Shown here one piece after another: positions 23,398 through 64,000 of a stretch of 64,000 nucleotides of DNA. The notes below the pieces were generated by a model, which was not told the DNA's origin, did not search any database, and saw nothing but the letters and a program-made list of their open reading frames with translations. Source of the DNA: Candidatus Blackburnbacteria bacterium (lineage in GTDB: Bacteria; Patescibacteriota; Microgenomatia; UBA8517; UBA10165); contig JACPEJ010000001.1 of assembly GCA_016183565.1 (NCBI GenBank), positions 226,577 to 290,576 on the forward strand, given 5' to 3'. Both the position numbers and the translations under genes were made by a program. The first letter of the stretch is position 1; each line of letters opens with the position of its first letter.

Positions 23398-23468
23398 CGG
23401 GGAATAGTTTAACGGCAGAATGCGCCCATGGGGTGGGTGTGGTAGGTGTTCAATTCACCTTTCCCCGA
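23398..23468 (+). tRNA. tRNA-Pro (anticodon GGG), 71 nt, CCA not encoded
   Basis: hand-folded: perfect 7-bp acceptor stem cggggaa/ttccccg with the C1:G72 pair and A73 typical of bacterial tRNA-Pro; U8; D-loop with GG; anticodon stem cgccc/gggtg; loop aUGGGGu with U33 and G37; T-stem aggtg/cacct; T-loop TTCAATT. Confidence 0.8.
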
Positions 23469-25108: not shown

Positions 25109-25137
25109 TTTGAATTCAAAATAGTTTTTTGTTACAA
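25109..25137 (+). promoter_or_regulatory. sigma70-like promoter TTGAAT-17-TACAAT; predicted transcript start ~3 nt before ATG 25147 (near-leaderless)
   Basis: TTGAAT at 25109-25114, TACAAT at 25132-25137. Confidence 0.5.
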
Positions 25138-25146
25138 TCTGGGGAG

Positions 25147-40428: not shown

Positions 40429-41748
40429 ATGCAACCAATACTCACTCACGCACTTCCATCACCCGAACTAGAACTTCCGCGCACACTGCACGACGATAGG
40501 CATCAACTTGAGGTGGTTGATGTGCCAATAGTTACTACGTCAGCTAGTTTCAGAAGTGATATCAAGAGAAACTTTGGCGAGTCAACTCGCAGTAAAGGGG
40601 ATGACATTGTTTTTTCCAGAGCACATTTCTCAATGGCTGTGGGAGTTTTAGAGCAAGCTGTTGAGGGGGGTTTAAGCTCTTGGCTTGTGGACCCAATTAA
40701 TTATATTTCGATTAAAGATTGGGGAAAGTTGGTGATGATGGTGAAGGTGGGACGTTTAGTTGCCAGATTTCATTTTTTAAAACACGTTAAGGATTTTGTA
40801 GATGAAATTGCTCGTGGGAAGATGCCGTTGACGAGTGCCATAACTCGACCATTGGTTTATGTAACTGGTGCTACCACGAAGCCAGTAGTATCGCTGCATT
40901 ATGAGACAGGAAATATTTTGGCAAGGGAAGGTAAGCAAGTTTTGCAAGTCGTGACGGATCCTTATGTTAGATCTCAATATCTTTTTGAAGCAGAGCGAGA
41001 GAATATAACTTATGCAGTTTTTGACAAAGAAACAAAGAAAGATTTTTTAGCTCAGGCAAAGGAACTTGGAAAACAGGTTGATCCGGCTCGAATTGTGGTT
41101 ACAGGACCACCTGTTGATCCAAGAATAGTAAGAGCCAGAGAGGGAAAGGCTGCTGTCTCACACAAAAGCCGACCCTTAAGGCTTGTTGTGACCACTGGAG
41201 GTTTGGGACAGAACAAAGAAGAAATTTTTCAAGTTCTTGATAGTATTGGACCTCTGGTTAAAGAAGGGAAGGTACAGGTTTTACTTTATGGGAGTACGTT
41301 GTCTGATTTTAAAAATATGTATAGAGAGGTAGCGCGTAAGTTTGATATTCCGGTTGGAGCAACAGATGATCTACAGGCGGCCTTGCGGATTCTATATTAT
41401 CCCGGCATAGTAGATGCGAATCAGTCTTTAATTAGTTATGCGTTTGACTGGGCTGATGGTTTTATTACCAAACCGTCGGGGGATATGGCGTATGACGCAG
41501 CGGCAGCAGGTTGCCTTCTTTTACTACTTGAACCATGGGGGGAGTGGGAGGAAAGTATTGGAAAAATTTTTACTAAACTTAACATTGCCTGCAAGGTTCA
41601 AACTGATGATTTTAGTCAACAACTGGAAGGGCTTCTTCAGAGTGGGTGGGTTGAAACCTCGATTGCAAATGCACTTAACATAGATAGGCTTTTTTTAAAT
41701 GGAGCGAAAAAGATAGTTGACTTACAGCAAAAAATTGCAATACAATAG
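40429..41748 (+). CDS. putative glycosyltransferase (MGDG-synthase/UgtP/MurG-like C-terminal domain)
   Basis: ...GFITKPSGDMAYDAAAAGCLLL... resembles the ITKPGG donor-binding region of GT28-type enzymes. Confidence 0.35.
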   Translation: MQPILTHALPSPELELPRTLHDDRHQLEVVDVPIVTTSASFRSDIKRNFGESTRSKGDDIVFSRAHFSMAVGVLEQAVEGGLSSWLVDPINYISIKDWGKLVMMVKVGRLVARFHFLKHVKDFVDEIARGKMPLTSAITRPLVYVTGATTKPVVSLHYETGNILAREGKQVLQVVTDPYVRSQYLFEAERENITYAVFDKETKKDFLAQAKELGKQVDPARIVVTGPPVDPRIVRAREGKAAVSHKSRPLRLVVTTGGLGQNKEEIFQVLDSIGPLVKEGKVQVLLYGSTLSDFKNMYREVARKFDIPVGATDDLQAALRILYYPGIVDANQSLISYAFDWADGFITKPSGDMAYDAAAAGCLLLLLEPWGEWEESIGKIFTKLNIACKVQTDDFSQQLEGLLQSGWVETSIANALNIDRLFLNGAKKIVDLQQKIAIQ

Positions 41749-47668: not shown

Positions 47669-47992
47669 TTACATTAACTGGAAACGGATTATTTTCAAGG
47701 GTGTGGTTTTGTTGATGTCGCAGTTATAGTAATGGGAGTAAGTTTCATACATTTTTTTATCGTTTTTGAAGGATTCGTGTCCATCTTTGTCTTCTTTTGT
47801 TAGTTTACCGAAAGTTGTTTGTTTGACTGAAGTGATTTTTGCTTTTGCAAATTCTTTTAGTGTTTCTCTATTGACCAAACTTAGTTTGTCATCTTCTGTT
47901 AGATTTTTGTCGTCGAAGAGCCGCCATGTGGAAGTTTTAGAACCATTAAGGATAATAGGGACTAATTCTGGGCTAAACTTTAGTATTTTCAT
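47669..47992 (-). CDS. ASCH-domain protein
   Basis: IILNGSKTSTWRL...GDKL pattern. Confidence 0.45.
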   Translation of the reverse strand: MKILKFSPELVPIILNGSKTSTWRLFDDKNLTEDDKLSLVNRETLKEFAKAKITSVKQTTFGKLTKEDKDGHESFKNDKKMYETYSHYYNCDINKTTPLKIIRFQLM

Positions 47993-49364
47993 TATTACCA
48001 ATTTCTTTAATACGCTTCAGAAGATAATCTCTGTTGTTTTTGGAGAGGTCTTCTTCAACTTCTGCAAAAAGTTTACTTAAAATTTGACCGATTTTTGGTC
48101 CTGATGGGATGTTTAATGTTTTCATAACATCATTACCGTCAACTTCTAAATCTTTTACAGAGAATGGTTGTTTTTGTACCTCTTCTAATCTCTTTTTGAA
48201 CTTTTCTAATCGCCAAGAAGTTTCGCTTGCTCCGCCACCTAAGCGGTCACCAGTTCGCAAATCTAGCATGTCTTGGAGGTTGTCTTTTCCAACCTTTCTT
48301 ATAAACCGTCTTAGTGCACCATCGGTTTGTCGCTCGTCGACGGTAAACTGGTGATAGCGTATAAGAGTCCATAGTTTATCTTTTTGTTTTTTTGAGAGTC
48401 TTAGGCGATCCGCAATCTCTTTTGCCATACGTGATCCAATTACTTCATGGTTATAAAAAGTGATAATGCCTTTTTCTGTCACCTGTTGTGTTTGTGGTTT
48501 CCCAATATCATGCAAGAGTGTTGCTAAACGGACAAGTGGATCTTTTGATGGACAGTTTTTAAGGGACATAAAAAGATGAGTACCTACATCATAAAGATGG
48601 TGTCTTTTTGGACTTTTCTGTTTAACTCCGAAAGATTTTTCGACTTCTGGTAGGATTTGTGTGAGCAATCCTGAATTTCTAAGCATTACTACCCCCTCGT
48701 AAGGGTAGAGGGATGCGAGGAGTTTTAATAGCTCATCCCGTATTCTTTCTTTTGAGACGAGATTTACTGATTCTCCTTGCATTTTTATTGCTTCGAAAGT
48801 CTTCTCTTCAATGGTGAATCCTAACTCGGAAGCAATTCTTACTCCCCGTATCACGCGAAGGGCATCTTCTCGAAATCTTTCGACAGGGTCGCCGACCGCT
48901 TTTATTAGTTTGTTTTTTAAATCATTCTGTCCGCCATGAGGATCAATTAACTCAAAGGGTAAATTGGATAGTTTACCTTGAGCAAGCGTGGCGCGTCGAA
49001 GGGCCATTGCATTTATTGTAAAATCACGCCTTGATAAGTCTTCTTCAAGACTTTCGCCCCATTCGACTTTGTCAGGGTGACGCTTATCTGTAAACCCAAT
49101 TTCTCGTCGGAAAGTTGTAATTTCGTAGGGCTTGAGGCAGGATTCGTGTGCGATGCCGATAGTACCAAATACGTTGTCGTAAAAGCCGTCGGGAAAAAGT
49201 TTTAAGATTTGGTCAGGTGTTGCGTTTGTTGTGAAGTCCCAGTCATTTACATCACGGTTTGTTAGGATATCTCGGACAGCTCCACCGACTATATAGATTT
49301 GGAACCCCGCTTGTTCGAAAGTATTGATGATGATTTTTACAAATTCTGGAAACTTGGTCGTCAT
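47973..49364 (-). CDS. cca: CCA-adding tRNA nucleotidyltransferase with HD domain
   Basis: GGAVRD..., D-x-D, HD domain LHDIGKP. Confidence 0.88.
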   Translation of the reverse strand: MTTKFPEFVKIIINTFEQAGFQIYIVGGAVRDILTNRDVNDWDFTTNATPDQILKLFPDGFYDNVFGTIGIAHESCLKPYEITTFRREIGFTDKRHPDKVEWGESLEEDLSRRDFTINAMALRRATLAQGKLSNLPFELIDPHGGQNDLKNKLIKAVGDPVERFREDALRVIRGVRIASELGFTIEEKTFEAIKMQGESVNLVSKERIRDELLKLLASLYPYEGVVMLRNSGLLTQILPEVEKSFGVKQKSPKRHHLYDVGTHLFMSLKNCPSKDPLVRLATLLHDIGKPQTQQVTEKGIITFYNHEVIGSRMAKEIADRLRLSKKQKDKLWTLIRYHQFTVDERQTDGALRRFIRKVGKDNLQDMLDLRTGDRLGGGASETSWRLEKFKKRLEEVQKQPFSVKDLEVDGNDVMKTLNIPSGPKIGQILSKLFAEVEEDLSKNNRDYLLKRIKEIGNNENTKV

Positions 49365-51148: not shown

Positions 51149-51191
51149 GGAGACTTGCTGTGGGAGACTCTTCTCGTTTACAATGTAGGTT

Positions 51192-52556
51192 GTGGAAAGA
51201 ACTTTAGCTATAGATACTGTAAAAAAAGTAGGTCAGGAGGTACGGCTTTTGGGTTGGGTGCACACAAAGAGGGATCATGGAAAAATTGTTTTTGTTGATT
51301 TGCGCGATAGGAGCGGGATAGTTCAGGTTGTTGGTGGTCAGGATTTGGTTGGTCTTCGTCCGGAGGATGTTGTTGAATTGACCGGCAATGTAATTAAAAG
51401 ACCGGATAACTTGATTAATCCTAAAATTCCGACCGGGGAAGTGGAACTTAAGGCCTCACGCGTTCAAGTTTTGTCAAAATCCTCGGATTTGCCTTTTCCA
51501 ATTGAAACTGATGGCTTGGAGATCGAGGAAGCGTTGCGTCTTAAGTATCGATATTTGGATTTAAGGAGAGAGAGAATGCAGCGCAACATTAGAGTTCGAA
51601 GTAAAGTTGTTCGGAGAATGCGAGAGTTTTTGATGGAACGGGATTTTGTGGAGATAGAGACCCCGATACTTTCGAAGGCGACTCCGGAGGGTGCACGGGA
51701 TTTTCTAGTGCCGTCCCGTTTACAAAAAGGGAAATTCTATGCTCTTCCCCAGTCTCCTCAGCAATATAAGCAATTATTAATGGTTGCTGGTATGGAAAGA
51801 TATTTTCAGATTGCAAGATGTTTTCGTGATGAGGATGCTCGGGCGGATAGAGCTTATGGGGAATTTACTCAGCTTGATATGGAAATGTCTTTTGTTACAC
51901 AAGATGAAATACTTTCTTTGGTCGAAGAGCTTTTTTTGGAGATTACAGAGAGTGTTTTGAACAAGAAGGTTTTTAAGAAGCCGTTTCCTAGGTTTACTTA
52001 TGGGCGGGCTTTGGAACAATTTGGAGATGATAAGTTTGACCTTCGAGAAGAGAAAGATCCGGATGTTTTAGCTTTTGCTTGGGTTGTGGACTTTCCTCTT
52101 TTTGAGCAGACGTCGGGAAGGAATGTTGCGCCGATGCACCATCCTTTCACAGCTCCTCGGGAGGAAGATATATCGCTTTTGGATACTGATATTTTCCAAG
52201 TTAGGTCTTTGCAGCATGATTTGATTTGCAATGGATTTGAGGTTGGGGGAGGGTCAGTAAGGATTACAGATCCTGAACTTCAAGCGAAAATCTTTGAAAT
52301 CCTTGGTCATACGCGGGCGGAAGTTGAGCGAAAGTTTGGTCATCTTTTGAGAGCTTTTCAGTATGGTGTTCCACCGCATGGGGGAATTGCTCCTGGTATA
52401 GATAGATTTTTGATGGCTGCGTTTGGAGAACCTTCAGTTCGGGAAGTAATGGCTTTTCCAACTAGCACTTCTGGTCAGACTGCGGTTATGGATGCTCCGT
52501 CTGAGGTTGAAGAAGATCAGTTGAAAGTTCTTGGAATTCAAGTTGGCAAAAAGTAG
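51192..52556 (+). CDS. aspS: aspartyl-tRNA synthetase (short type lacking the GAD insertion; GTG start)
   Basis: OB anticodon-binding domain, class II motifs (FRDE, GGGSVRI, GIDR). Confidence 0.9.
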   Translation: MERTLAIDTVKKVGQEVRLLGWVHTKRDHGKIVFVDLRDRSGIVQVVGGQDLVGLRPEDVVELTGNVIKRPDNLINPKIPTGEVELKASRVQVLSKSSDLPFPIETDGLEIEEALRLKYRYLDLRRERMQRNIRVRSKVVRRMREFLMERDFVEIETPILSKATPEGARDFLVPSRLQKGKFYALPQSPQQYKQLLMVAGMERYFQIARCFRDEDARADRAYGEFTQLDMEMSFVTQDEILSLVEELFLEITESVLNKKVFKKPFPRFTYGRALEQFGDDKFDLREEKDPDVLAFAWVVDFPLFEQTSGRNVAPMHHPFTAPREEDISLLDTDIFQVRSLQHDLICNGFEVGGGSVRITDPELQAKIFEILGHTRAEVERKFGHLLRAFQYGVPPHGGIAPGIDRFLMAAFGEPSVREVMAFPTSTSGQTAVMDAPSEVEEDQLKVLGIQVGKK

Positions 52557-52568
52557 ACAATTTTCGGT

Positions 52569-53507
52569 ATGCCCAAAAAACTTGTAAATTATTTTTCTGC
52601 GGAAGACCAATTCCTTTTTTATGTTTGCGCTTTTTGGGTCAGTGTAGTTTTTGCAGGTTTGGTTATAGGGGAGACAGGAAAGGTTAAGGCAGAGAGGGAA
52701 GTTCTTCCACCTCAGCCTTTTGTGCAGGAGGTGCCGCGAGTGCCAAAGCCCGATTTGAGGTCAGGTGCTATTTTACCGCCTGTTCTTTCTGCCAAGGCGG
52801 TGTATGTGGTTGATGATGAATCGGGGGAAGTGTTATTCTCGAAGAATGAGAGTGAGCCTGTTCTTCCTGCTTCGACTACAAAGATTGCGACTGCGTTGGT
52901 TGCCTTAACACACTATAATCTTCAGGATGTACTTACGGTTGGTAAGTTAGATGCTACTGGTCAAACTATGGATCTTCAGGTGGGTGAAGAGATGAGTGTG
53001 GAAAATCTTCTTTATGGGTTATTGATTTTTTCAGCTAATGATGCGGCGGAGGTATTGGCACAAAACTACCCAGGAGGTAGAAGTAATTTTATAGATGCGA
53101 TGAATCGTTTAGCGAAACAGCAAGGTTTGGAGAATACTCATTTTGTGAACCCTGTTGGTTTTGATGAATATTTGCATTTCTCTTCTGCACAAGATTTGAC
53201 TAAGTTAGCGCAGTACGCAATAAAAAACCCGGTGTTTGCAAAGATTGTTGCAACTCCTGAGTTTAGTGCAACTAATGTAGACGGAACTGCGGTGCATAAG
53301 CTTGCGAATATAAATGAGCTGATTGGTAAGGTGCCTGGTGTTTTGGGAATAAAGACTGGTTGGACTGAGAGTGCAGGAGAGTCGTTGATAACTTTGATTG
53401 AGAGGGATGGGCATAAGGTTGTTATTTCTCTTTTGGGGAGTGCTGATCGTTTTGAAGAGACAAAGGTTCTTTTGGATTGGATATTTGGGAGTTATGAGTG
53501 GAAGTAA
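52569..53507 (+). CDS. D-alanyl-D-alanine carboxypeptidase (PBP5/6 family)
   Basis: SxxK (ASTTK), SxN (FSAND), KTG (IKTGWT). Confidence 0.8.
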   Translation: MPKKLVNYFSAEDQFLFYVCAFWVSVVFAGLVIGETGKVKAEREVLPPQPFVQEVPRVPKPDLRSGAILPPVLSAKAVYVVDDESGEVLFSKNESEPVLPASTTKIATALVALTHYNLQDVLTVGKLDATGQTMDLQVGEEMSVENLLYGLLIFSANDAAEVLAQNYPGGRSNFIDAMNRLAKQQGLENTHFVNPVGFDEYLHFSSAQDLTKLAQYAIKNPVFAKIVATPEFSATNVDGTAVHKLANINELIGKVPGVLGIKTGWTESAGESLITLIERDGHKVVISLLGSADRFEETKVLLDWIFGSYEWK

Positions 53508-53521
53508 TATGATATTATAAT

Positions 53522-53725
53522 GTGCTACACATGATGAAACCCGTTGATTTAACTAAACTTTTAAAGAAGTACACTTCAGGGTGGGTTGCACTGTCTAAAG
53601 ACTACAAAAGGGTGGTAGCTGCAGCTGAATCCTTAGAGGAGCTTGATGGGAGGCTGAAGAAGCTTAGAAATCCAAAAGTAGTTTTGATCTCTGCTGCACC
53701 TAATTATCGTAGTTTTATTACATAA
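53522..53725 (+). CDS. small protein (67 aa), DUF5678-like
   Basis: KKYTSGWVAL..D.KRVVAAAESLEEL...; coupled to the next gene by an ATAATGA overlap. Confidence 0.45.
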   Translation: MLHMMKPVDLTKLLKKYTSGWVALSKDYKRVVAAAESLEELDGRLKKLRNPKVVLISAAPNYRSFIT

Positions 53726-54129
53726 TGACACTTCCGTATTTTATGCTGCCTGGCGATCCCACCAAAGTTCTACGGCCACTTGTGCCAGTCAAATATAAGT
53801 ATCAAGGTAAAGAAACCAAACCCATACTTACCCTTATTGATTCAGGTGCTGACTACTCTTTTGCGACTCTCAAGATTGCTCTTTATTTGGGTATAAAATT
53901 TAAGGGTATTAAACCTGTATCAATTACTGGTTTTAACCAGGCTACAACAGGCTGTTTTCCCAAAGAGGTGGGTGTTGAGGTCGCAGGGCGAGAAATCCAG
54001 ATGCCAGTGTATTTTGGTGGCTCACTGACTCAGGAGTATCCCAGTATTTTAGGCCAGGATATATTCTTTGATAAAGCAAGAATTACATTTGAAAGATACA
54101 ATTGGAGTTTTGGTATCTATTGGCAGTGA
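53725..54129 (+). CDS. retropepsin-like aspartic protease
   Basis: LTLIDSGADYSF matches the D-S/T-G-A active-site motif; 134 aa. Confidence 0.6.
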   Translation: MTLPYFMLPGDPTKVLRPLVPVKYKYQGKETKPILTLIDSGADYSFATLKIALYLGIKFKGIKPVSITGFNQATTGCFPKEVGVEVAGREIQMPVYFGGSLTQEYPSILGQDIFFDKARITFERYNWSFGIYWQ

Positions 54130-54163
54130 AACCCTCTCGAGTTAAAATAGATGAGTATAAGAA

Positions 54164-55207
54164 TTAGTTTCCGTAATATTCGGGGGTGATGGCGGGGATA
54201 AAGCTTCGGAAGTTGTTGTCTCCCTCGAAGGCGAAGACTGGTTGGAGGAATTGTTGGGGGGTTCCTGAATCATAATACGCAAGATAAACTCTTCTTATAG
54301 GTATGTTTCCGCCGGTTGGCGGAGCGGAGATTATAAGAGCCTTGCCACTTGTTAGTTCCTCCCAGGCGGTTTGTACAGTCTTTATAGGATAGGTAGATTT
54401 TTGCTCTTGGGATATTGGGAAGTAATGATATTCTCCGGCGACAATTTGGCGTGGTCCGTATGTTTCTCCTGAGACTAAAAGCCACACGGTTGAACGGTCT
54501 ATCTTTGGGGTTAGAATTGGTAGGTTATTGTAGTCCTGTCTCCAAAAGTTAACTCTTACGAAGTTTGCTTGGGATATGGAGGACACAGTTTCGAGAGCCT
54601 CAGGCGCGCTGCGCAAGAATTCGAAGGTTTGTCGGCCTTGTACTAAATCTTGAGCAAGGAGGCTAGCGGAGTTTAGGAAGGAACGTGCACTTTGGCTTGC
54701 GTCTTCGGTTGATTTTGGGTGAAGGTTTAGTAATTCTGTGTCTTGATTTAAGTTGTAACTGAGAGATAGTGTTCGGTTGACTATGTTTATATCTAATACC
54801 GAAGGAACGGTTGGATGTTGGAATCTGTATGTGACATCTGATAAAGCAGTGACTTCTTTGGGGAAACCGAGATATTTTGCAATTCTTGATGCTTCGTCAA
54901 GGTTTAAAAAGGAGGTTTGTGGTGTGGGCATAAAATGGACCGTTGCCTGGGATGAGAATTTTGGTAGTTCTCCGGTTGGTGTTTGTAAAGAATAGGAAAA
55001 GGTTGGTAAACCCGGTTTGGGTGTGAATACAATTGCAGGGAGTTTTTTAAACCTCACCTCTGGTGGTGGAGGAGGAGCGGGAAAAAAATGCCGGTAAGTG
55101 CTGAAGCCTGCGACCCAGGCGATACGAAGACCCAGGAGGATACTTATAAAAATTATTCCGTACTTGATTACACTTCTGGACCAATAGGCGGTTTCAGTTA
55201 GTGTCAT
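54164..55207 (-). CDS. hypothetical membrane-anchored extracytoplasmic protein
   Basis: N-terminal TM helix then a PPPPPE linker; 347 aa. Confidence 0.5.
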   Translation of the reverse strand: MTLTETAYWSRSVIKYGIIFISILLGLRIAWVAGFSTYRHFFPAPPPPPEVRFKKLPAIVFTPKPGLPTFSYSLQTPTGELPKFSSQATVHFMPTPQTSFLNLDEASRIAKYLGFPKEVTALSDVTYRFQHPTVPSVLDINIVNRTLSLSYNLNQDTELLNLHPKSTEDASQSARSFLNSASLLAQDLVQGRQTFEFLRSAPEALETVSSISQANFVRVNFWRQDYNNLPILTPKIDRSTVWLLVSGETYGPRQIVAGEYHYFPISQEQKSTYPIKTVQTAWEELTSGKALIISAPPTGGNIPIRRVYLAYYDSGTPQQFLQPVFAFEGDNNFRSFIPAITPEYYGN

Positions 55208-55269
55208 TAGTTTGATTCTACCATGTTTTATACGTATACTGAAGGTGTTTTTGGAAGGGGTTGGTGGTT

Positions 55270-56592
55270 ATGAGAAAAACTGGAAAATCTATTAAAGGTG
55301 TGCGTACGAGGGTTGCGCCTTCTCCTACGGGATTTGCTCATGTGGGTACTGCGTACGTAGCGCTTTTTAATTATGCTTTTGCAAAAAAGCATGGTGGTCA
55401 ATTTATACTTCGGTTGGAGGATAGTGACGTTAAAAGAAATGTACCTGGTGCTGAGGAGGCAATTTATAAAGGGCTTTCTTGGTTAGGTTTGTCTTGGGAT
55501 GAAGGGCCGGATATTGGTGGAAGCTACGGACCTTATCGGGAGTCAGAGAAGCTGGAGATTTATCAAGGACAAGCAAAGAAGCTCGTGGGGGAAGGTAAGG
55601 CTTATGAGGATAATGGGGCTATAAGGTTTAAGAATCCGGGCGAGGAGGTTAGTTGGAATGATCTTATTCGGGGGGTAATTACGTTCCCAGGAGAAGAGAT
55701 AACGGATTTTGTAATTATGAAATCTGATGGGTATCCGACCTACAACTTTGCTGTGGTTGTGGATGATATTGAGATGAAAATTTCCCATGTGATTCGGGGG
55801 GAGGAGCATATATCAAATACTCCGAGGCAGTTGGCTATTTATAAGGCTTTGGGTGTTGTGTCTCCACAATTTGCACATCTTCCGACACTGCGTAATTTTG
55901 AGCGCAAAAAGCTTTCTAAAAGGCGTGATCCTGTTGACTTGCGTATTTATCAAAAGGAAGGGTATTTGCCCGAAGCTTTGGTTAATTTCTTGTGTCTTTT
56001 GGGGTGGTCGCATCCGGAGGAAAAAGAGGTGTTTTCCTTGAACGAGTTTGTTACGAGTTTTGATTTGGGGCGAGTAAGGAAGGCGGGGCCGATTTTTGAT
56101 GTAAAAAAGCTTGACTGGATAAATGGGGTTTATATAAGAAATTTGGATGATAATACTCTTTCTGATTTGGTTGGTAAATATCTGTCCGTGAGTGTTTCGG
56201 AGGATTTTTTGAGGCAAGTTGTTCCTTTGATAAAAGAGAGGATTTCAAAGCTTTCAGAGGCGGAGAATCTTTTGTCGTTTTTTTGGGAAAGGCCGAGTTT
56301 GCAACCGGAGCTCTTTAGTCCTCACGGGGTTTCGCATGTGGCGTCAGCTGCTCGTGCTCTTGGCGAGATTTCGGATTGGATACTAGAAGACGTTAACAAC
56401 AAACTTGGAGAGCTGATTGCTGAAAAAAAATTTAAGACTGGTGAATTCTATATGAGTTTAAGACTTGCCCTGACTGGAAAGCGGGTTACGCCGCCAATTA
56501 ATGAGTCAATAGTTATTTTAGGTCAGGATGAGGTAATACATCGCCTGGAAGAGGCTGAAAAGGTTTTGGTTGAAGTTGGAGCTCGGGTTTAG
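55270..56592 (+). CDS. gltX: glutamyl-tRNA synthetase
   Basis: VRTRVAPSPTGFAHVGTA (HIGH-type), KLSKR (KMSKS). Confidence 0.92.
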   Translation: MRKTGKSIKGVRTRVAPSPTGFAHVGTAYVALFNYAFAKKHGGQFILRLEDSDVKRNVPGAEEAIYKGLSWLGLSWDEGPDIGGSYGPYRESEKLEIYQGQAKKLVGEGKAYEDNGAIRFKNPGEEVSWNDLIRGVITFPGEEITDFVIMKSDGYPTYNFAVVVDDIEMKISHVIRGEEHISNTPRQLAIYKALGVVSPQFAHLPTLRNFERKKLSKRRDPVDLRIYQKEGYLPEALVNFLCLLGWSHPEEKEVFSLNEFVTSFDLGRVRKAGPIFDVKKLDWINGVYIRNLDDNTLSDLVGKYLSVSVSEDFLRQVVPLIKERISKLSEAENLLSFFWERPSLQPELFSPHGVSHVASAARALGEISDWILEDVNNKLGELIAEKKFKTGEFYMSLRLALTGKRVTPPINESIVILGQDEVIHRLEEAEKVLVEVGARV

Positions 56593-56605
56593 GTAATTCA
56601 ATTCA

Positions 56606-57613
56606 ATGTCAAAAACTGCCTATTGTACGACGTCTGCAGCACGGAATCGGATTAAGCTACGGCATTTTGAGGCGCAGGCAAGGTTTCGGCAGAGACATCC
56701 TCACGCTTCTGAGTTTTTCCAAAAAGTAGGGGTTGATCCGGGGAAAATAAGAGAACATTCCGCTCGGCTTTTGACAGCCGGAGCTTTAGGTGGTGCTTTG
56801 CTTCTTGCGCCTGGTATAAGTGTTAGTAATCAGCAGAATCAGGTTGGCCAGCCCCCTTCTTTGAAAATGTTGCCTCTATCAAGTACCGCAAACCCTCTTG
56901 TTTTGCCTGCTCCTATTGTCCCGTCACTTGAGGATGCTGGGAAAGTTTGGACAACAAATCCTCAGGAATGGTTAACTTACCAATTAGGAAAACTTCTCCC
57001 TCCAATTACGAATCGTTGGGGGTTGCCTTTTTTAAGCAGGGAAGAAGAAAAGATAATCGAGAAGGTTGTGGAGCGTGCAACGGGTGTGCCGGCAAAGGCT
57101 ACTTTAGAAGGTGAACGTTTGAACACTGTTTACGGGTACATTGGTGCTGAACAACACCTTGCGCGTTATCCTGGTGACACAATGGCTGGTCATGAGTTGA
57201 AGGCGGAGGGGATGGCTCCGGGTTTGGGAGGTTGGGGATATTTTACCGTTGCTGGTAAATTAACCAGTGATGCTATTGAGCGGGAGAAATATTATGTTGC
57301 TGTGCAAACTCTTTATTTGCCTGATTGGGGGAAGAGGGTGAAGTATCTTGCTCAGTGGTATAAGTGGAGGAAGGTTATAGTTGTTGATGTTGAGCGGGGG
57401 ACGGCAGTAGTTGCGGTGGTGGGGGATGCTGGACCGGCTGCTTGGACAGGAAAACATTTTGGCGGAAGTCCTGAGGTAATGTACTCTTTGGGAGGGCCGC
57501 GATATAAGAAAGGACGAGTGCTTTTGTATTTTGTGGATGATCCGGAGAATAAGATTCAACTTGGGCCAGTTGATTATAATAAGCTTAATGTTCCGATGGT
57601 AAAATCAATCTAA
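56606..57613 (+). CDS. hypothetical secreted protein (possible DPBB/3D-like C-terminal domain)
   Basis: ORF; C-terminal VVDVERGTAVVAVVGDAGP resembles RlpA/3D-type barrels (weak). Confidence 0.4.
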   Translation: MSKTAYCTTSAARNRIKLRHFEAQARFRQRHPHASEFFQKVGVDPGKIREHSARLLTAGALGGALLLAPGISVSNQQNQVGQPPSLKMLPLSSTANPLVLPAPIVPSLEDAGKVWTTNPQEWLTYQLGKLLPPITNRWGLPFLSREEEKIIEKVVERATGVPAKATLEGERLNTVYGYIGAEQHLARYPGDTMAGHELKAEGMAPGLGGWGYFTVAGKLTSDAIEREKYYVAVQTLYLPDWGKRVKYLAQWYKWRKVIVVDVERGTAVVAVVGDAGPAAWTGKHFGGSPEVMYSLGGPRYKKGRVLLYFVDDPENKIQLGPVDYNKLNVPMVKSI

Positions 57614-57662
57614 TATGAGTAAGATATTTTATACGAGCGAAGCGAATTGAAGAAAGTTTTGT

Positions 57663-57998
57663 ATGTCAAAAATTTTTTACGATCACTTGATAATCCTTGA
57701 GGAAGTTGAGATTGAGTTGAGTAGGCTTGAGATAGAGCGGGAGGAGCGGACCGAGATTGAACAATTGATAGATGAGTTGGTTCATCACAGAGTTTTGGAC
57801 AGAGTTCTTACACATCTTCCACGAGAGCATCATGAGGAATTTTTGGAGAAGTTTCATCGGGCTCCTTATGATTCTAAACTTCTTTCGTACCTTGATGAGA
57901 AGATTGAGGAAAGTGTTGAGGAGCATATCAAAGATGAGGTTGGGAAGTTAAAAAAGGAAATACTAGAAGATCTTCGTTCTTCTTCTAAAAAGGATTGA
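57663..57998 (+). CDS. hypothetical acidic coiled-coil protein
   Basis: ORF only. Confidence 0.35.
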   Translation: MSKIFYDHLIILEEVEIELSRLEIEREERTEIEQLIDELVHHRVLDRVLTHLPREHHEEFLEKFHRAPYDSKLLSYLDEKIEESVEEHIKDEVGKLKKEILEDLRSSSKKD

Positions 57999-58008
57999 TT
58001 TTCCTACT

Positions 58009-58038
58009 TGACTTTTTTTACAGAATAACATTATAGTG
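58009..58038 (+). promoter_or_regulatory. sigma70-like promoter TTGACT-18-TATAGT upstream of the giant surface-protein gene
   Basis: seen in sequence. Confidence 0.4.
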
Positions 58039-58060
58039 TTCAGATACTGTTAATTTCTGA

Positions 58061-61000
58061 ATGAAGATTGGAATATATAGTAGAATACTATCTTCAGCGT
58101 TAGTTCTTTCTTTGGTTTTTACACAAGGTGTTTTCCCCTCATTGGTTATTGCTCAAGAGGCAACTCAACCAGCTGAATTATTTAGTGGAATTGACGGCCA
58201 GGAACAGCAAACGCAGTTAACTTTAGAAATTACTCCTACACCATCAATAACTCCTACTGATACCCCAACTCCCACTGCAACCACAACCCCTACCACTACT
58301 CCAGAACCAAACCCTACGCCAACACCATTAAATCCACAAGCGCTATGGACAAATAATAATGATTCATACACAACAGAAATACTAAAATTAGGTGTAACCT
58401 ATAAATTCCCTCTTAACGAAAAAGTCAGTTTAACATTTACCAAACTTCCTACTGAATCTGGCACTGTCACGGTTACAGAACATGATGCGCCTGCCACTAT
58501 CAACAATCCAGGCAGCAAAGATTATGAAATTACTTCAACAATGGAGAATGGTAGTTTCGAATTTGACTTAACTCTACCAACTAATGATCCCAATAAAAAC
58601 GTTCTTTCCTCCCAGGATGGACAAAATTATTCTCCTCTTAATAATGAAAAAATAACATCTTTAGATGCGGTCACTATTAAAGGCATCAATCATCTAACCC
58701 ATTTTTTAGTAGGGGAGTTAAATAATTCTAATGATACTAAACATCCGGTTATTAATGAGTTCTTTTCTAGTGGATCAAACGACTGGATAGAATTATATAA
58801 CCCTAGAGCGGACCCAATAGATTTGTCTGGGTGGAAGTTGGATGATAACGGAGGTACCTCAGCTGTATATACCTTTGGCTCGGTAACTATCCCGGCGGGA
58901 GGGTTTGTCCTACAAGGTGGTACTTTCGGCTTAAACAATGACGGAGATACGGTAAGGCTTATCGACTCCTCAGGCAATACTAGAGACGCTGTTCCATATG
59001 GATCAGAACCTAATGCTTTATTAGCAGCCCCAAGTTCATCCCAATCTGGTAGACGAATAATCAATAGCGGAACTACCTGGGAAATATCATCTAATATTAC
59101 TCAAGGTTTTACTAACGAGAATTCCATTATTTATGTTGATGACAGTTACACAGAAGGCAGCGAATTCGGCACCACTACTTTTCCATTTAACACCATCCAG
59201 GAAGGAGTTAATGCGGTTATATCCGGCGGTACAGTCAATGTGGCGGCGGGAACATACACAGAATCTGTTGTTGTAAATAAAACTTTGACATTGTCTGGGG
59301 TTGGTGCAACCACTGTTATTAGTCCAACAGTTGACCAGGATGGTATTAAAGTTACAGCAAACAATGTGGTAATAAAGGACTTAAAAGTTGTTACGTCTAA
59401 TTCTGGTGTTACTCCTAATATTGCAGTTCGGATTGAGGGAACAAGCGGAGTTGAAATTAGCGGCAATGTGATTGAAACTACCGGCAACAAAGCCATGGGA
59501 ATTTGGATCTGTGGCACTACTTCCGGTTGCTCAACGACCAGCAACCTAACTATAAAAAAGAATACGATTACAATTAATGACTCCGCAACTGGTATTTATG
59601 CCGAAGAAGCCAGTCCTGCGCATGCTGGTTGGACAATTGGGGGGACAAGTACCTCTAACGCCAATACTATTACAGCTAATTTAGGCAATCCTTTAGAGCT
59701 TTATGATGTGTCAGCCTCAGAAGTTAGTTACAATAACCTTACTACAGCTGCGACGGGCGGATCTAATGTTATATGGTCAAGCCAATTATCTGATATCTCC
59801 AACTTGGTGTTTAAAAATAACACAGTTGTCGGCTCCGGAGGTAGTCAGGTTGCTTTCTTGACAGACTTTCTTGTTCTCGGTGACGGTTTGGCGAATACCC
59901 ATGTAAGTATCGTGACAATTTCAGAGAATACTTTTAGTAGTTGGGGTTCAAGAGCGTTAAGAATTGGAGATGGAGCTGGTGTAAACGGAACAACTGTTAC
60001 TGGAGTTACTATTAGTTCAAACACGTTTAATATGACCGCTGACCCGGAAGTTATTGGAGGTACGGCTGGTGGCAGTGCGACCGGAACTGGAAATACATTC
60101 AACGTAAGTGGAACAGCAAAAATCCAAAAAGCCATTGATGCTGCTAGAACCAACGATATAATCAACGTAGCAGTAGGAACATATACCGAGGACTTAACGA
60201 TTGCTTCGGGCAAGACGAATCTTGAACTGTCGGGGACTGGTTCACCAACTATTAAGGGCGTTTCAACAGTCCCCGTTGCGAATTATCCCCAAGCAGTGCC
60301 AAATATAGAAATTTTAGCAAGCGGAGTAAAGCTTCATGGCTTTACTATCGAAGGGCCTGATTATTCTGCCAGTACTTATGCAAGCGGTATGATTGTTGGT
60401 AGCTCAAACGTAGAAATTTACTCAAACGCTTTTAGGGTGCCTACGTACAGTAATGGTAATACTGCTATGAGCAATGCTATTCAAACTTGGCATAAGAATA
60501 ACAAACCAACTGTTGATATTTCAGGTCTGAATATCCATGACAATACTTTTGCTGGTTTGTCTTCTGAAAATGCTGGTTATGAGGGTATTTATCTAAACTT
60601 GGATACAGGCACTAGTGTTGCAACGATTCAAAATAATATTTTTACAGGCAATATTTTTCGTGCTATTACCACAGAAAGATCCAAGACTACTATTACTGGC
60701 AACACAATAACCAACAATCTTCCTGCAAGTGGTGGTAGTTATACGGGTACTGGTGGGTGGCAAGGTATAAATATAGGTGGTGCAAATGACTTTGGGGCGG
60801 TGACAGACATTTTGGTTTCTGCTAACACAATAACTGGGTCTAGTGAAGACAGAGGTTTTTCCTATGGTGTGAAACTAGGATTTAACTCGGTAAATGCGTT
60901 TAGTGGAGTTTCGGTGACAAACAACACAATACACAGAGCTGGTATTGCAGGAGTTCGGGTAATGCACACTGCAAACGGGATTTTGGCGAACACCAACGAT

Positions 61001-64000
61001 TTGTCTGATAATGTTTTGGGTGCAAAAAATGAAGATGCTACAAATATTCTTAATGCAATTAACAACTGGTGGGGAGTTGCGAGTCCGAGTTGGGCAAGTA
61101 CTGTTTTTGGGCTTGTCAGTTATGATCCTTGGTGGATGGATGCTAATAAAACGCTTCCATCAACATTTATTAACACCTTCAATACCATCCATGACGACCT
61201 TGTTGACCAAGATATAGAAAATAATATCGATACTTGTGGCACTCATCCAAATTCCTGCTCTGGGTTATATTTTAAAAAGGTGGTTAACGGAATCTCCCTG
61301 GGGAAACTGTTCTTTACCAATACGCTTGATTTAACCAGCAATGAAACAACAACATTTCTACAAAATCTTGGTAACAAACTTGAACAAGGCAGTGGTAGAA
61401 TTGCCTTTGATGCCAGAGAGTCATCATTATTTTCTGCCACCGGCGCCACTCTGGAAATGTATAACTTGCCTGTTGTTACCCAGTCAAACCTGGTTGTTAG
61501 AAATGATACTGGAACAATACTTGACCAGACAGGACTAATCAGTAATTTTAGCTATAGTACTGGACCAAATGCAGACGGAGACACCAATATTGTTTCTTTC
61601 AATGCTGCCCACTTCACGCAATTTGATATTGATACCACAAAACCGACAACTTTGGATAATGTTGATGGCGCATGGCACAACACAACTCAAACTATCACAT
61701 TAACATGCATCGATAATCTGTCCGGTTGTGACAAAACCTATTACACCACAGACGGAAGCATACCCACCACCAGTTCTTCCCAAGGCAATTCTGTTGTATT
61801 AGCTACGGACGGTACTTATACTATTAAATATTTCTCAGTTGATAAAGCTGGAAACGCAGAAGAGGTAAAAACCTCTGCCAACCAGATAAGAATTGACAAG
61901 ACCAATCCCGATGCTCCAATTGTTACTTCTATAGCAACTGATAATAAAATAAACAATGCAGAAAAATCAGCTATTGTGGTTACGGGAACTGCTGAGGCCA
62001 ACTCTTTGGTTAGCGTCACTTTAAGTGATGGCGCTAACAGTGTTACTAATACTCAACAATTAACCAATGGCGCTGCTAATTTTTCTGTTACTCTTAATGG
62101 GGCTAATGCTTTGCCAGCTGGTTTAACTGATGGTACTATTACTCCTTCTGTCACAGCCAAAGATGCTGCTAATAATGTTAGTAATCCTGCCACTACTCCC
62201 ATAGCTATTCTAGATACTGCTTCTCCTTTAGCGCCAAATATTACTCTACTTGATCCAATCAATAATTCTAATAAAACCGCAGTCACTATCACAGGCACAG
62301 GAGAAGCAAATGCAGCTATCAACTACACAATTACTGACAGCACTAACACAATCACTGGCACTTCTACTGTTAATAATGAAGGTGTAATTAATATCACCGG
62401 TATTAATGTATCAACGCTTATTGACGGAACACTTACCGCTAGTGTTACTATAATTGATACGGCAGGAAATATTAGCACTACTGGTGCTGATAGCGCTGCT
62501 AAAGACGCTGTTATTCCCAGTTTGTCCTCTGTAGGCCTATCTTCCAGTAATTCCAACAACGCCGCAGCAAAAGTAGGTGATACTGCTACTCTCACTTTTG
62601 TCTCTTCTGAATCTATTCAAGCGCCTACGGTGACAATTGCTGGTCATACCGTTACAGCTACTAATACTACTGGTAATACTTGGACTGCTATCTATACTCT
62701 GACACCAACGGACACAGAAGGGGTAGTTATTTTAACTATTGGGTTTGTTGACATAGTAGGAAATGCAGGAAATACAGTCAATGCCACGACAAATAACTCT
62801 TCTGTATTGTTTGATAAAACTGCTCCTTCTCAAATAGTAGCCAATCCGATTGCTGGATCTTATTCTTCAGCTCAAACTATTAGTTTTACCAGTAGCGGTA
62901 GTTCTGTCATTATGTATAGCACCACACAAACATTAAGTGGGTGTGCTTTTGGTAATGTTTATTCCTCACCTATTACCATCTCCTCGTCTACGAATCTTTT
63001 CACAATTTCGTGTGATGACGCTGGTAATAGCAGTAAGGCTGATTTTAGCTATACTATTGGTAACACTAATTTACAGCCGCCTTCAGAGAATCTTGGCCAG
63101 GTTTCCACTCCTGCCACTGTTATGTTAAATAATAATGCCAGTTTAGATGTAAGTGGTGGTCGGAATATAGCGGTAGGAGGGATTATAAAAGTCGATGGGG
63201 TGGATAAATCCCTGAGCAGTTTTTCTAGTAATGATCTGAGTAATAAAGATTTGACTGTTCCTCAATCGGTAGGTGGGCAATTAATTACTATTAATCAAGC
63301 TGTGAAGCTTGAGTCGACTTCTGATATTAGTTTGGCTAATGCTGATTTGACAAATGTTAATGTTTCTATTCCGAACAATACTACGGTTTTAGCGCCAACT
63401 GGGTGGGATGGTAGGATTCAACCGCCTAAGGCTGTTGGGGGTTCTGGTAGTGCACCAACGGGGTTTTCTTTGGGCAATACAGTTATTGAGGTTGGGTCAG
63501 CTGATACAGTACTGCTTTTTGACAAACCCGTTGTTGTAACTCTAAGCGGGGTTACGGGGGATGTGGGCTACAAAGCTGCAGGATCGACGACTTGGCACAA
63601 GATAGATACGATTTGTAATAGTTACGATAGTCCAACGAATGTTGTGTTTCCTGGAGAGTGTCGTGTTTCGAATGGCACGGACACGCGGATATACACTTAT
63701 CACTTCACGACTTTTGGTTCGTTGGATGTTGCTCCTGTGGTTTCTGGTGAAGGTTCTGTTGGGGGAGTAAGTGGTTTGTCAGCAAGTGGGGCCCCGGTTT
63801 GCGTGGACACTAAGCCTTCGAGTGCTCCTAAGCTTCTTTCAGCACAAATCACAGGTTTTAATGAGGTTACTTTAACATGGTCTCCTGCTTCGGATCCTGT
63901 TACATATTATTTAGTGGCCTATGGAACGAAATCGGGAGAGCTTGTTTATGGGAATCCGGATGTGGGAGGTAGGGGTACGACGAGTTTTACAGTTGAAGGA
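58061..64000 (+). CDS. giant secreted surface protein (>1980 aa; 3' end beyond the window): signal peptide, Thr/Pro linker, lamin-tail domain, parallel beta-helix repeats, Big/chitobiase-C-like Ig domains, FN3
   Basis: open frame 2 from ATG 58061 to the window end, not listed in the ORF track; LTD motif INEFFSSGSNDWIELYNPRADPIDLSGWKLDD; beta-helix repeats NVAAGTYTESVVVNKTLTLSG; YTTDGSIPT...YTIKYFSVDKAGNAE. Confidence 0.8.
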   Translation, partial: MKIGIYSRILSSALVLSLVFTQGVFPSLVIAQEATQPAELFSGIDGQEQQTQLTLEITPTPSITPTDTPTPTATTTPTTTPEPNPTPTPLNPQALWTNNNDSYTTEILKLGVTYKFPLNEKVSLTFTKLPTESGTVTVTEHDAPATINNPGSKDYEITSTMENGSFEFDLTLPTNDPNKNVLSSQDGQNYSPLNNEKITSLDAVTIKGINHLTHFLVGELNNSNDTKHPVINEFFSSGSNDWIELYNPRADPIDLSGWKLDDNGGTSAVYTFGSVTIPAGGFVLQGGTFGLNNDGDTVRLIDSSGNTRDAVPYGSEPNALLAAPSSSQSGRRIINSGTTWEISSNITQGFTNENSIIYVDDSYTEGSEFGTTTFPFNTIQEGVNAVISGGTVNVAAGTYTESVVVNKTLTLSGVGATTVISPTVDQDGIKVTANNVVIKDLKVVTSNSGVTPNIAVRIEGTSGVEISGNVIETTGNKAMGIWICGTTSGCSTTSNLTIKKNTITINDSATGIYAEEASPAHAGWTIGGTSTSNANTITANLGNPLELYDVSASEVSYNNLTTAATGGSNVIWSSQLSDISNLVFKNNTVVGSGGSQVAFLTDFLVLGDGLANTHVSIVTISENTFSSWGSRALRIGDGAGVNGTTVTGVTISSNTFNMTADPEVIGGTAGGSATGTGNTFNVSGTAKIQKAIDAARTNDIINVAVGTYTEDLTIASGKTNLELSGTGSPTIKGVSTVPVANYPQAVPNIEILASGVKLHGFTIEGPDYSASTYASGMIVGSSNVEIYSNAFRVPTYSNGNTAMSNAIQTWHKNNKPTVDISGLNIHDNTFAGLSSENAGYEGIYLNLDTGTSVATIQNNIFTGNIFRAITTERSKTTITGNTITNNLPASGGSYTGTGGWQGINIGGANDFGAVTDILVSANTITGSSEDRGFSYGVKLGFNSVNAFSGVSVTNNTIHRAGIAGVRVMHTANGILANTNDLSDNVLGAKNEDATNILNAINNWWGVASPSWASTVFGLVSYDPWWMDANKTLPSTFINTFNTIHDDLVDQDIENNIDTCGTHPNSCSGLYFKKVVNGISLGKLFFTNTLDLTSNETTTFLQNLGNKLEQGSGRIAFDARESSLFSATGATLEMYNLPVVTQSNLVVRNDTGTILDQTGLISNFSYSTGPNADGDTNIVSFNAAHFTQFDIDTTKPTTLDNVDGAWHNTTQTITLTCIDNLSGCDKTYYTTDGSIPTTSSSQGNSVVLATDGTYTIKYFSVDKAGNAEEVKTSANQIRIDKTNPDAPIVTSIATDNKINNAEKSAIVVTGTAEANSLVSVTLSDGANSVTNTQQLTNGAANFSVTLNGANALPAGLTDGTITPSVTAKDAANNVSNPATTPIAILDTASPLAPNITLLDPINNSNKTAVTITGTGEANAAINYTITDSTNTITGTSTVNNEGVINITGINVSTLIDGTLTASVTIIDTAGNISTTGADSAAKDAVIPSLSSVGLSSSNSNNAAAKVGDTATLTFVSSESIQAPTVTIAGHTVTATNTTGNTWTAIYTLTPTDTEGVVILTIGFVDIVGNAGNTVNATTNNSSVLFDKTAPSQIVANPIAGSYSSAQTISFTSSGSSVIMYSTTQTLSGCAFGNVYSSPITISSSTNLFTISCDDAGNSSKADFSYTIGNTNLQPPSENLGQVSTPATVMLNNNASLDVSGGRNIAVGGIIKVDGVDKSLSSFSSNDLSNKDLTVPQSVGGQLITINQAVKLESTSDISLANADLTNVNVSIPNNTTVLAPTGWDGRIQPPKAVGGSGSAPTGFSLGNTVIEVGSADTVLLFDKPVVVTLSGVTGDVGYKAAGSTTWHKIDTICNSYDSPTNVVFPGECRVSNGTDTRIYTYHFTTFGSLDVAPVVSGEGSVGGVSGLSASGAPVCVDTKPSSAPKLLSAQITGFNEVTLTWSPASDPVTYYLVAYGTKSGELVYGNPDVGGRGTTSFTVEG

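Follow-up and report, generated by a model that had tools for sequence, protein, structure and literature searches.

What is encoded by the reading frame that stays open from an ATG at position 58061 to the last letter of the 64,000-nucleotide stretch of Candidatus Blackburnbacteria DNA analysed here (contig JACPEJ010000001.1; hereafter the window), and what might its product do for the cell that carries it? We conclude that the frame is a real gene, covering the first 1980 residues of a 2082-residue Candidatus Blackburnbacteria protein, and that this protein is a rearranged member of a family centred on the Microgenomates. Its sequence and the models built from it point to a large exported protein, tethered to the membrane at its C-terminus, whose distal domains may bind polysaccharide.

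Translated in frame 2, the + strand from 58061 to 64000 gives 1980 codons free of stops, and re-reading them turned up no interruption of the frame that the initial annotation had described as open to the window end. An in-frame TGA at 58058-58060 directly abuts the ATG, which is thus the earliest possible start. Given the base composition of the window, 1980 stop-free codons would arise by chance with a probability of ~1e-60, and the runner-up stop-free stretch in all six frames is 719 codons long. Across its entire length the translation matches, at 100% identity, the NCBI protein MBI2268123.1 (P0001 in our collection), a chain of 2082 amino acids (aa) recorded as 'MAG: lamin tail domain-containing protein [Candidatus Blackburnbacteria bacterium]' and derived from a 686,250-bp contig. 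The gene had escaped the list of open reading frames (ORFs) for the reason originally suspected: it has no stop in the window, and the program that made the list omits ORFs that run off the sequence. The 102 residues that fall past the window end are read here from the identical NCBI protein, not from window DNA. Attribution to a tiny-genome bacterium also agrees with the record, which is a metagenome-assembled genome with a 686-kb contig and the lineage Patescibacteria group, Microgenomates group, Ca. Blackburniibacteriota. The protein was first called giant, at more than 1980 aa; it does exceed that length, but the epithet is generous, since the chain ends 102 aa past the window and, by present-day standards, 2082 aa counts as large and not as giant. 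A public record already lists the gene, predicted and named, and the domain types of its product are common. Scans of genomes and metagenomes returned only distant relatives, the best with 52-65% identity over parts of the protein.

A chance frame, an assembly chimera or a tailspike recently brought in by a phage or mobile element can be effectively excluded as the source of this gene. Three observations could be read that way: a drop in GC skew from ~+0.3 to ~0 where the gene begins, the breaking of short-read contigs of several runs at 58148-58170, and the presence of phage tailspikes among the fold matches described below. Against them stand the minute probability of such a frame, the identical NCBI protein and dozens of homologs, a locus that is syntenic in a related genome, and the lack of adjacent phage or mobile genes. 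The skew stays near 0 within the gene (58000-64000), and the protein is rich in T, S, N and G and poor in K and E (T 13.4%, S 10.4%, N 8.9%; K 3.2%, E 3.3%); the drop follows from this amino-acid composition, not from foreign origin. Synonymous codon usage is normal, at a distance of 0.096 vs 0.09-0.17 for the other + strand genes. Horizontal acquisition, which the skew had suggested, was rejected on these grounds.

The features of the gene and its product, on which the argument below draws, are the following.

58008-58037, + strand: promoter-like site TTGACT-18-TATAGT, 24 nt 5' of the start codon (sigma-70-like consensus scan, 10/12 match)
58061-58153, + strand: start codon and predicted Sec-type signal peptide (aa 1-31: MKIGIYSR, hydrophobic core, VIA-QE), from hydropathy and homolog leaders
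58220-58339, + strand: Thr/Pro-rich linker (aa 54-93), 70% T+P by composition
58340-58717, + strand: conserved N-domain (aa 94-219), ending HLTHF, from homology
58733-59119, + strand: lamin-tail domain (LTD); Pfam match aa 225-314 (58733-59002), homology block to aa 353 (BLAST q230-353)
59183-60118, + strand: right-handed parallel beta-helix 1 (aa 375-686), predicted from a NosD N-cap, AlphaFold2 (AF2) and Foldseek
60119-61162, + strand: right-handed parallel beta-helix 2 (aa 687-1034), ending in a NWWG...YDPWW cap, predicted from the same three sources
61163-61642, + strand: domain X (aa 1035-1194), alpha/beta, with motifs LYF(E)K ... HFTQFD, from AF2 secondary structure
61658-63058, + strand: array of five immunoglobulin (Ig)-like modules (aa 1200-1666), each scanned alone against Pfam
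61658-61894, + strand: module 1, CHB_HEX_C_1 (PF13290), 43.7 bits vs 22
61895-62200, + strand: module 2 (a), Big_6/Big_13-like, 25.6/20.6 bits, sub-cut-off (Big_6 cut-off 27.6)
62201-62500, + strand: module 3 (b), Big_13 (PF19077), 29.5 bits vs 27
62501-62824, + strand: module 4 (c), Big_12-like, 23.6 bits, below the cut-off of 27
62825-63058, + strand: module 5, CHB_HEX_C_1 (PF13290), 27.3 bits vs 22
63059-63730, + strand: conserved C-module (aa 1667-1890), 224 aa, all-beta, ending HFTTFG
63800-64000, + strand: FN3 (aa 1914-2012), cut by the window end at aa 1980, from PF00041 and matches in the PDB

Annotation with hidden Markov models and structure prediction showed the domain map first drawn from the letters alone to be essentially right. 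The proposed signal peptide has the expected hydrophobic leader, basic residues and VIA-QE site; the Thr/Pro-rich linker placed at 58220-58330 was found almost exactly there; the LTD put at ~58740-59000 corresponds to an above-threshold Pfam match; and the further beta domains with a terminal FN3-like module appear as the all-beta module at 63059-63730 and the FN3 from 63800. Two entries had to be redrawn. The beta-helix assigned to ~59100-61300 has the predicted fold, but it consists of two tandem helices (59183-61162), and the last ~150 residues of that range belong to domain X. The three or more Big/chitobiase-C-like modules expected at 61600-63100 are of that type and in that region, and they number five.

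Two hydrophobic segments, the N-terminal leader and the C-terminal helix, are the only ones in the whole protein (Kyte-Doolittle >1.6), and everything between them belongs to domain types typical of extracellular proteins. The leaders of homologs are alike and end in ...A(Q/E)E(A)T, and we infer from the sequence that the leader is cut between VIA and QE or close by. The twelve cysteines fall into six close pairs, which fit an extracellular location. It is very probable from these sequence features that Sec exports the protein, that the leader is removed near VIA-QE and that the mature chain has a type-I anchor, its C-terminal helix, which holds it to the cytoplasmic membrane. Five Ig-like modules, the all-beta C-module and, nearest the membrane, the FN3 would then make up a stalk that carries the distal N-domain, the LTD and the two beta-helices through and past the wall.

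The functional argument turns on the two helices. An AF2 model of aa 340-1200, built with 22 aligned sequences, shows two successive coils of short strands with a capping helix N-terminal to each (per-residue confidence score pLDDT 86.6, global score pTM 0.77), and helix 1 lies mostly above pLDDT 90. Each helix opens with the cap 'IQxAIdaA..G.tI.V..GtY.E', and each aligns with the initial ~100-120 positions of the NCBIfam NosD model TIGR04247 (helix 1 E 1.9e-11, helix 2 E 2e-8) with scores of 43 and 33 bits, far under the family cut-off of 300. PF13229 (Beta_helix) or PF05048 (NosD) is present in many homologs. In a Foldseek search of the model against the PDB, 37 matches reached E<=1e-3, and all 37 listed are right-handed parallel beta-helices. 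The best are the two-helix PL6 alginate lyases 8bwk, 7dmk, 7o77 and 5gkq (E 1e-7 to 5e-6, probability 1.00), followed by the AlgE4/AlgE6 C5-epimerases, the lyase RbmB, enzymes of families GH55, GH87 and GH136, and phage tailspikes; the epimerases, RbmB and the tailspikes likewise have a probability of 1.00. The region thus resembles parallel beta-helices in its modelled fold, and Pfam repeat models do not detect it.

Conservation singles out helix 1. It is the most conserved element of the protein, 53-60% identical across proteins of quite different architecture and length, with the subtype motifs NKAMGIW, NPAHxGWTIGG, ELYDVS, NVIWSS and WGSRALR. Across 7-8 homologs it keeps 57 invariant residues, among them W482, W524, D549, W572, W628, R631, R634 and E663, whereas helix 2, far less conserved, keeps only nine. 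Helix 1 would be the main binding candidate, because this invariant surface rich in Trp, Asp, Arg and Glu is kept across otherwise different proteins. We consider it about an even bet, judging from the models and from analogy, that the beta-helices, with the LTD and the N-domain, bind polysaccharide on another cell or in the matrix, which would make the protein a glycan-directed adhesin. Glycan binding is favored because the solved structures that the helices resemble are mostly glycan-binding or glycan-processing, and a second line of support comes from the envelope proteins of a cultured Saccharibacterium discussed at the end; the protein might also cleave the glycan. The surface protein PfbA demonstrates that adhesion can be the task of a beta-helix anchored at the C-terminus (PMC3718772). 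A role in attachment to host cells is plausible, and the protein can be considered a candidate for it.

The main rival gives the same fold a catalytic task: a membrane-tethered polysaccharide lyase, hydrolase or epimerase whose helix or helices would degrade glycans of a host wall or of the matrix, for nutrition or entry, with the remaining domains serving as stalk and substrate-binding accessories. Its appeal is that the best fold matches are enzymes (PL6, AlgE, RbmB, GH87, GH136, GH55 and tailspike depolymerases) and that the helix region also draws weak profile matches to GH120, AlgG and pectinesterase, the first two of which count in the same direction. In addition, D549, R631, R634 and E663 of helix 1 are invariant across architectures together with four Trp, a pattern like that of an active site; CHB_HEX_C modules typically serve glycosidases as accessory domains; and LTDs commonly accompany extracellular hydrolases (PMC6085458). 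However, no CAZy-type catalytic family is matched in Pfam or NCBIfam, identity to the enzymes is 9-14%, so that catalytic residues cannot be aligned, and beta-helices of the NosD/CASH type are often non-catalytic. Such an enzyme has a real but clearly smaller chance than a glycan-directed adhesin.

Several points weigh against reading the protein as an exported adhesin for glycans on host cells. The beta-helix assignment holds at the level of the fold only, because sequence identity to solved helices is 9-14%, and the two helix segments have no Pfam match even at E<=1. The role of bacterial LTDs is unknown even in proteins that have been studied (PMC6085458), and the VIA-QE cleavage site was placed by eye. 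Helix 1, the N-domain with the LTD, and the C-module are 55-65% identical across different lineages, which is easier to reconcile with a shared ligand or substrate than with receptors particular to a host. In the literature consulted, episymbiosis is not documented for Blackburnbacteria.

The elements flanking the helices are a mixture of recognised and unmatched domains. The LTD is a nearly complete PF00932 match (E 5.8e-16, 59.3 bits vs a cut-off of 34.3, profile positions 4-108 of 109). The N-domain in front of it is 48-65% identical among family members and occurs also in proteins that have no LTD; neither it nor domain X has a match in Pfam or NCBIfam. Blocks homologous to domain X lie between the LTD and the helix in four relatives (P0002, P0007, P0005 and P0027), so the domain moves about within the family. 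Within the Ig array, tandem duplication links modules 2 and 3 (z = 18.7), the sole related pair; the array also draws OmpL47-type and Ca_tandemer matches, and a BLAST of the protein against itself gave no significant internal repeats. A similar strand motif ends three domains, HLTHFL in the N-domain (aa 211-216, 58691-58708), HFTQFD in domain X (aa 1184-1189, 61610-61627) and HFTTFG in the C-module (aa 1881-1886, 63701-63718), and family members show like endings of the same three domains.

After the C-module, the FN3 scores 46.2 bits with PF00041 on the full-length tail (cut-off 25) and has FN3 matches in the PDB down to 4e-11. Past the window end it is followed by the motif PAQGFQEGVLG (aa 2018-2028), which in the AF2 model is ordered and packed beside the FN3 (pLDDT ~91), then by a disordered linker of ~30 aa and a helix at aa ~2059-2081 that ends RRRA. 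The initial annotation had called for the C-terminus and any sorting signal to be located; the NCBI protein supplied the former, and what it shows is a plain transmembrane (TM) helix with no recognised sorting signal. LPXTG is not present: the sequence ...DTSKKPFSKP precedes the C-terminal helix, though the hydrophobic segment and the RRRA tail are in place. None of the NCBIfam CTERM models (PEP-CTERM, PGF-CTERM, GlyGly-CTERM and others) matches the last 75 or 188 residues at E<=10, the only NCBIfam match on the tail is srtB_target on the TM part (13.1 bits vs 18.15), and Pfam scans of window proteins, which covered 20 of the 46 ORFs with 150 aa or more, found no sortase. The simplest reading of the tail is a type-I membrane anchor.

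The combination of FN3, GFxxGVLG motif and anchor recurs as a cassette on many Microgenomates proteins whose remaining architecture is unrelated, and this is the only, and mildly, new point in a protein of otherwise known kind; we found no description of the cassette in the literature. In an alignment of 18 tails, the G-F and V-L-G of the motif and the core residues of the FN3 are invariant, and two Cys are nearly so. A profile search with the cassette retrieved 232 proteins, many of them short (150-340 aa) and others larger and varied, with names from Shapiro-, Roizman-, Collier- and Gottesmanbacteria and the 'Microgenomates group'. The motif is present in 83 of the 200 proteins collected, a median of 53 residues before the C-terminus. 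Of these 83, 46 terminate in a TM helix followed by a basic tail, 23 have an amphipathic F..(L/I)F(G)(K/R) segment in its place, and 28 have a second (V/I)LG downstream. An exhaustive profile search with the FN3+anchor alignment gave counts of 45,767, 13,581 and 1,882, with multi-FN3 giants as the top 150; because scores add over repeats, these counts reflect FN3 generally and not the cassette.

Such recurrence allows a bolder speculation, which we regard as a long shot: the cassette could be a lineage-specific signal for envelope sorting or processing, following a logic like that of LPXTG and sortase or PGF-CTERM and archaeosortase, in which (V/I)LG would be recognised or cleaved, while a glycan-active helix 1 would grip or attack other cells. 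In other Microgenomates, contigs L091 (2006-6296), L089 (7001-8854) and L084 (13-3809) hold cassette or family proteins with suggestive neighbours. One cassette protein lies directly 3' of a 689-aa protein with a faint LTD match and of genes for a Peptidase_M73 (camelysin/TasA-like) and an S26/S24-type signal peptidase; another adjoins a Wzy_C (O-antigen-ligase-like) gene; and at the locus of P0004, a relative from Levybacteria, membrane glycosyltransferase-type genes (YfhO and PTPS_related) lie upstream. These neighbours are possible links to the processing or glycosylation of surface proteins.

The cassette also bears on a second rival, in which the protein is a structural component of the envelope, an S-layer-like or wall-spanning scaffold inserted into the membrane by its C-terminal cassette, with a beta-rich ectodomain that would build or decorate the surface instead of binding another cell. 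The cassette turns up on many Microgenomates proteins, both small and large, as a generic envelope anchor would, and family genes lie near the glycosyltransferase genes YfhO and Wzy_C in other genomes. The combination of a type-I anchor and a Thr/Pro linker is reminiscent of archaeal S-layer glycoproteins. The gene also has a promoter-like site of its own within a housekeeping region, which is a consensus match only, in a region with 2 such sites vs 1.5 expected from shuffles. Yet the architecture differs even between syntenic orthologs, with the Ig array present or absent and domain X moving, which would be unusual for a lattice former, and neither SLH nor any other S-layer family is matched in Pfam or NCBIfam. 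We consider a structural role unlikely, and return to the glycan-directed adhesin as the preferred reading.

The differences between orthologs emerge from the family as a whole. BLAST mapping defines a core of leader, T/P linker, N-domain, LTD, beta-helix, C-module, FN3, motif and anchor, typically in proteins of 1100-1350 aa. A representative relative, P0004 (Levybacteria RIFCSPLOWO2_02_FULL_37 A3J14_03925, 1262 aa), shares with the window protein the core blocks, the helix N-cap and the FN3 with two conserved Cys at 53-65% identity. A second relative is P0002 (1619 aa), whose locus (L087, 329-12554) is collinear with window positions 51189-64000: both have, in the same order, AspRS, S11 carboxypeptidase, a 347-aa gene on the minus strand, GluRS, a 335-aa gene, a 111-aa gene and the large gene. 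Because the loci are collinear, we take P0002 to be the ortholog in a related genome. It is without the entire Ig array and has domain X between the LTD and helix 1, unlike the window protein, which differs from both P0002 and P0004 in having both helix subtypes, domain X after the helices and a five-module Ig insertion of ~470 aa. The window version thus arose by insertion of the ~470-aa set of modules and relocation of a domain.

Within its Microgenomates-centred family, which is uncharacterised but catalogued, the gene is a lineage-specific and rearranged member: relatives of the P0002 and P0004 type are named in databases simply 'hypothetical' or 'lamin tail domain-containing', and we found no study of this LTD/beta-helix/FN3 family in the literature. 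Syntenic orthologs that differ by insertion and relocation of whole domains are what one would expect if a surface protein evolves fast. For ultrasmall Patescibacteria, genomes offer few clues to interactions with other cells, and large proteins that are secreted or anchored are among them; the present case adds a fully parsed example, with topology, eleven domains and a family core, while established knowledge is unchanged.

The surroundings of the gene are those of a core chromosome, with genes for EF-G, EF-Tu, SecY, RecA, RNase Y, SecDF, CCA-adding enzyme, RecJ, AspRS and GluRS in the window. With these housekeeping neighbours, the synteny with P0002 and normal synonymous codon usage, the locus is chromosomal and vertically inherited. 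No paralog of any part of the protein occurs elsewhere in the window and no conserved operon partner was found, the Levybacteria homolog having unrelated neighbours. The 335-aa and 111-aa genes immediately upstream (56606-57613 and 57663-57998) are kept at the P0002 locus and match no family; like the minus-strand gene for 347 aa (54164-55207), they are conserved in the syntenic locus and have no Pfam match. Three further ORFs of the window also have none (417-1721, 434 aa; 25129-26901, 590 aa; 40429-41748, 439 aa).

Other observations concern the window more broadly. From 1 to 58000, GC skew lies between +0.1 and +0.38 throughout and the larger ORFs (at least 150 aa) are mostly on the + strand, while the minus-strand genes at 47973-49364 and 54164-55207 have synonymous codon distances of 0.27 and 0.35 vs 0.09-0.17; together, the skew and the codon divergence of these two genes point to a strong strand-specific mutational bias. 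A small gene pair at 53522-54129, with matches to DUF5678 (weak, 22 bits) and to the retropepsin-like Asp_protease_2 (E 5.5e-4, sub-cut-off), is absent from L087, which has Q_salvage and DUF378 genes elsewhere. The 64 kb contain one tRNA gene only (Pro, anticodon GGG, 23398-23468), and no Rfam family reaches its gathering score in the window. Three Logan contigs (L001, L002 and L003, from SRR12113430, SRR12113384 and SRR12113383) match up to 8.1 kb of the upstream window at 100% identity, and all three stop at 58148 or 58170, just past the part that codes for the signal peptide. These breaks suggest strain-level variation from the mature N-terminus on, or leader sequences common to paralogs.

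How does the protein compare with systems already described? Among the domain families tested, LTD, FN3, CHB_HEX_C_1 and Big_13 are all represented, and the major classes of surface protein fit less well. The giant adhesins of type I secretion systems (LapA, SiiE, MpIBP) are not a match: Ca_tandemer NF033510 reaches 28.7 bits vs 50, the five Ig modules are dissimilar, the leader is of Sec type and the tail is a TM helix. An autotransporter or two-partner secretion (TPS) protein is not indicated either, as Pfam and NCBIfam give no match to a translocator or TPS domain and the C-terminus is a single helix. Neither the LPXTG substrates of sortase nor the known CTERM sorting domains include it.

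Individual proteins offer closer parallels. Two-domain PL6 alginate lyases (AlyGC 5gkq, BcAlyPL6 7dmk, Patl3640 7o77, and 8bwk) likewise consist of two tandem right-handed parallel beta-helices; however, identity is 11-13%, TM-scores are ~0.2 over the whole model, no family match appears at the level of sequence, and the lyases, whose catalytic residues are a Lys/Arg Bronsted pair with a Ca2+ site of Asn/Glu/Glu, are soluble enzymes that have neither LTD nor Ig stalk nor membrane anchor. ExeM of Shewanella resembles the window protein in being secreted or envelope-associated, with an N-proximal LTD and a C-terminal hydrophobic anchor region (PMC6085458). In Pfam and NCBIfam scans the window protein, unlike ExeM, shows no nuclease, OB-fold or phosphoesterase domain; its weaker database matches include LTD nuclease-type proteins with OB-fold, BOF and SNase architectures, and in ExeM itself the LTD is dispensable for degradation of extracellular DNA (PMC6085458). 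PfbA of Streptococcus pneumoniae is, like the window protein, a surface protein of a monoderm that starts with a signal, exposes a parallel beta-helix as its ectodomain and is anchored through its C-terminus (PMC3718772), but it is linked to the wall through LPXTG and sortase where the window protein has a plain TM helix, it is much smaller and has no LTD or Ig/FN3 stalk, and no sequence relation between the two was detected. A further parallel is offered by envelope proteins of the epibiont Southlakia epibionticum with VCBS, dockerin and FN3 domains (PMC10633639), which are patescibacterial and likewise combine polysaccharide-binding or -degrading modules with FN3. They come from Saccharibacteria and contain other domains, so the analogy is functional only; in that cultured Saccharibacterium, glycan-binding or -degrading and FN3 envelope proteins are essential for epibiotic growth and have been proposed to target host glycans, for adhesion or degradation (PMC10633639).

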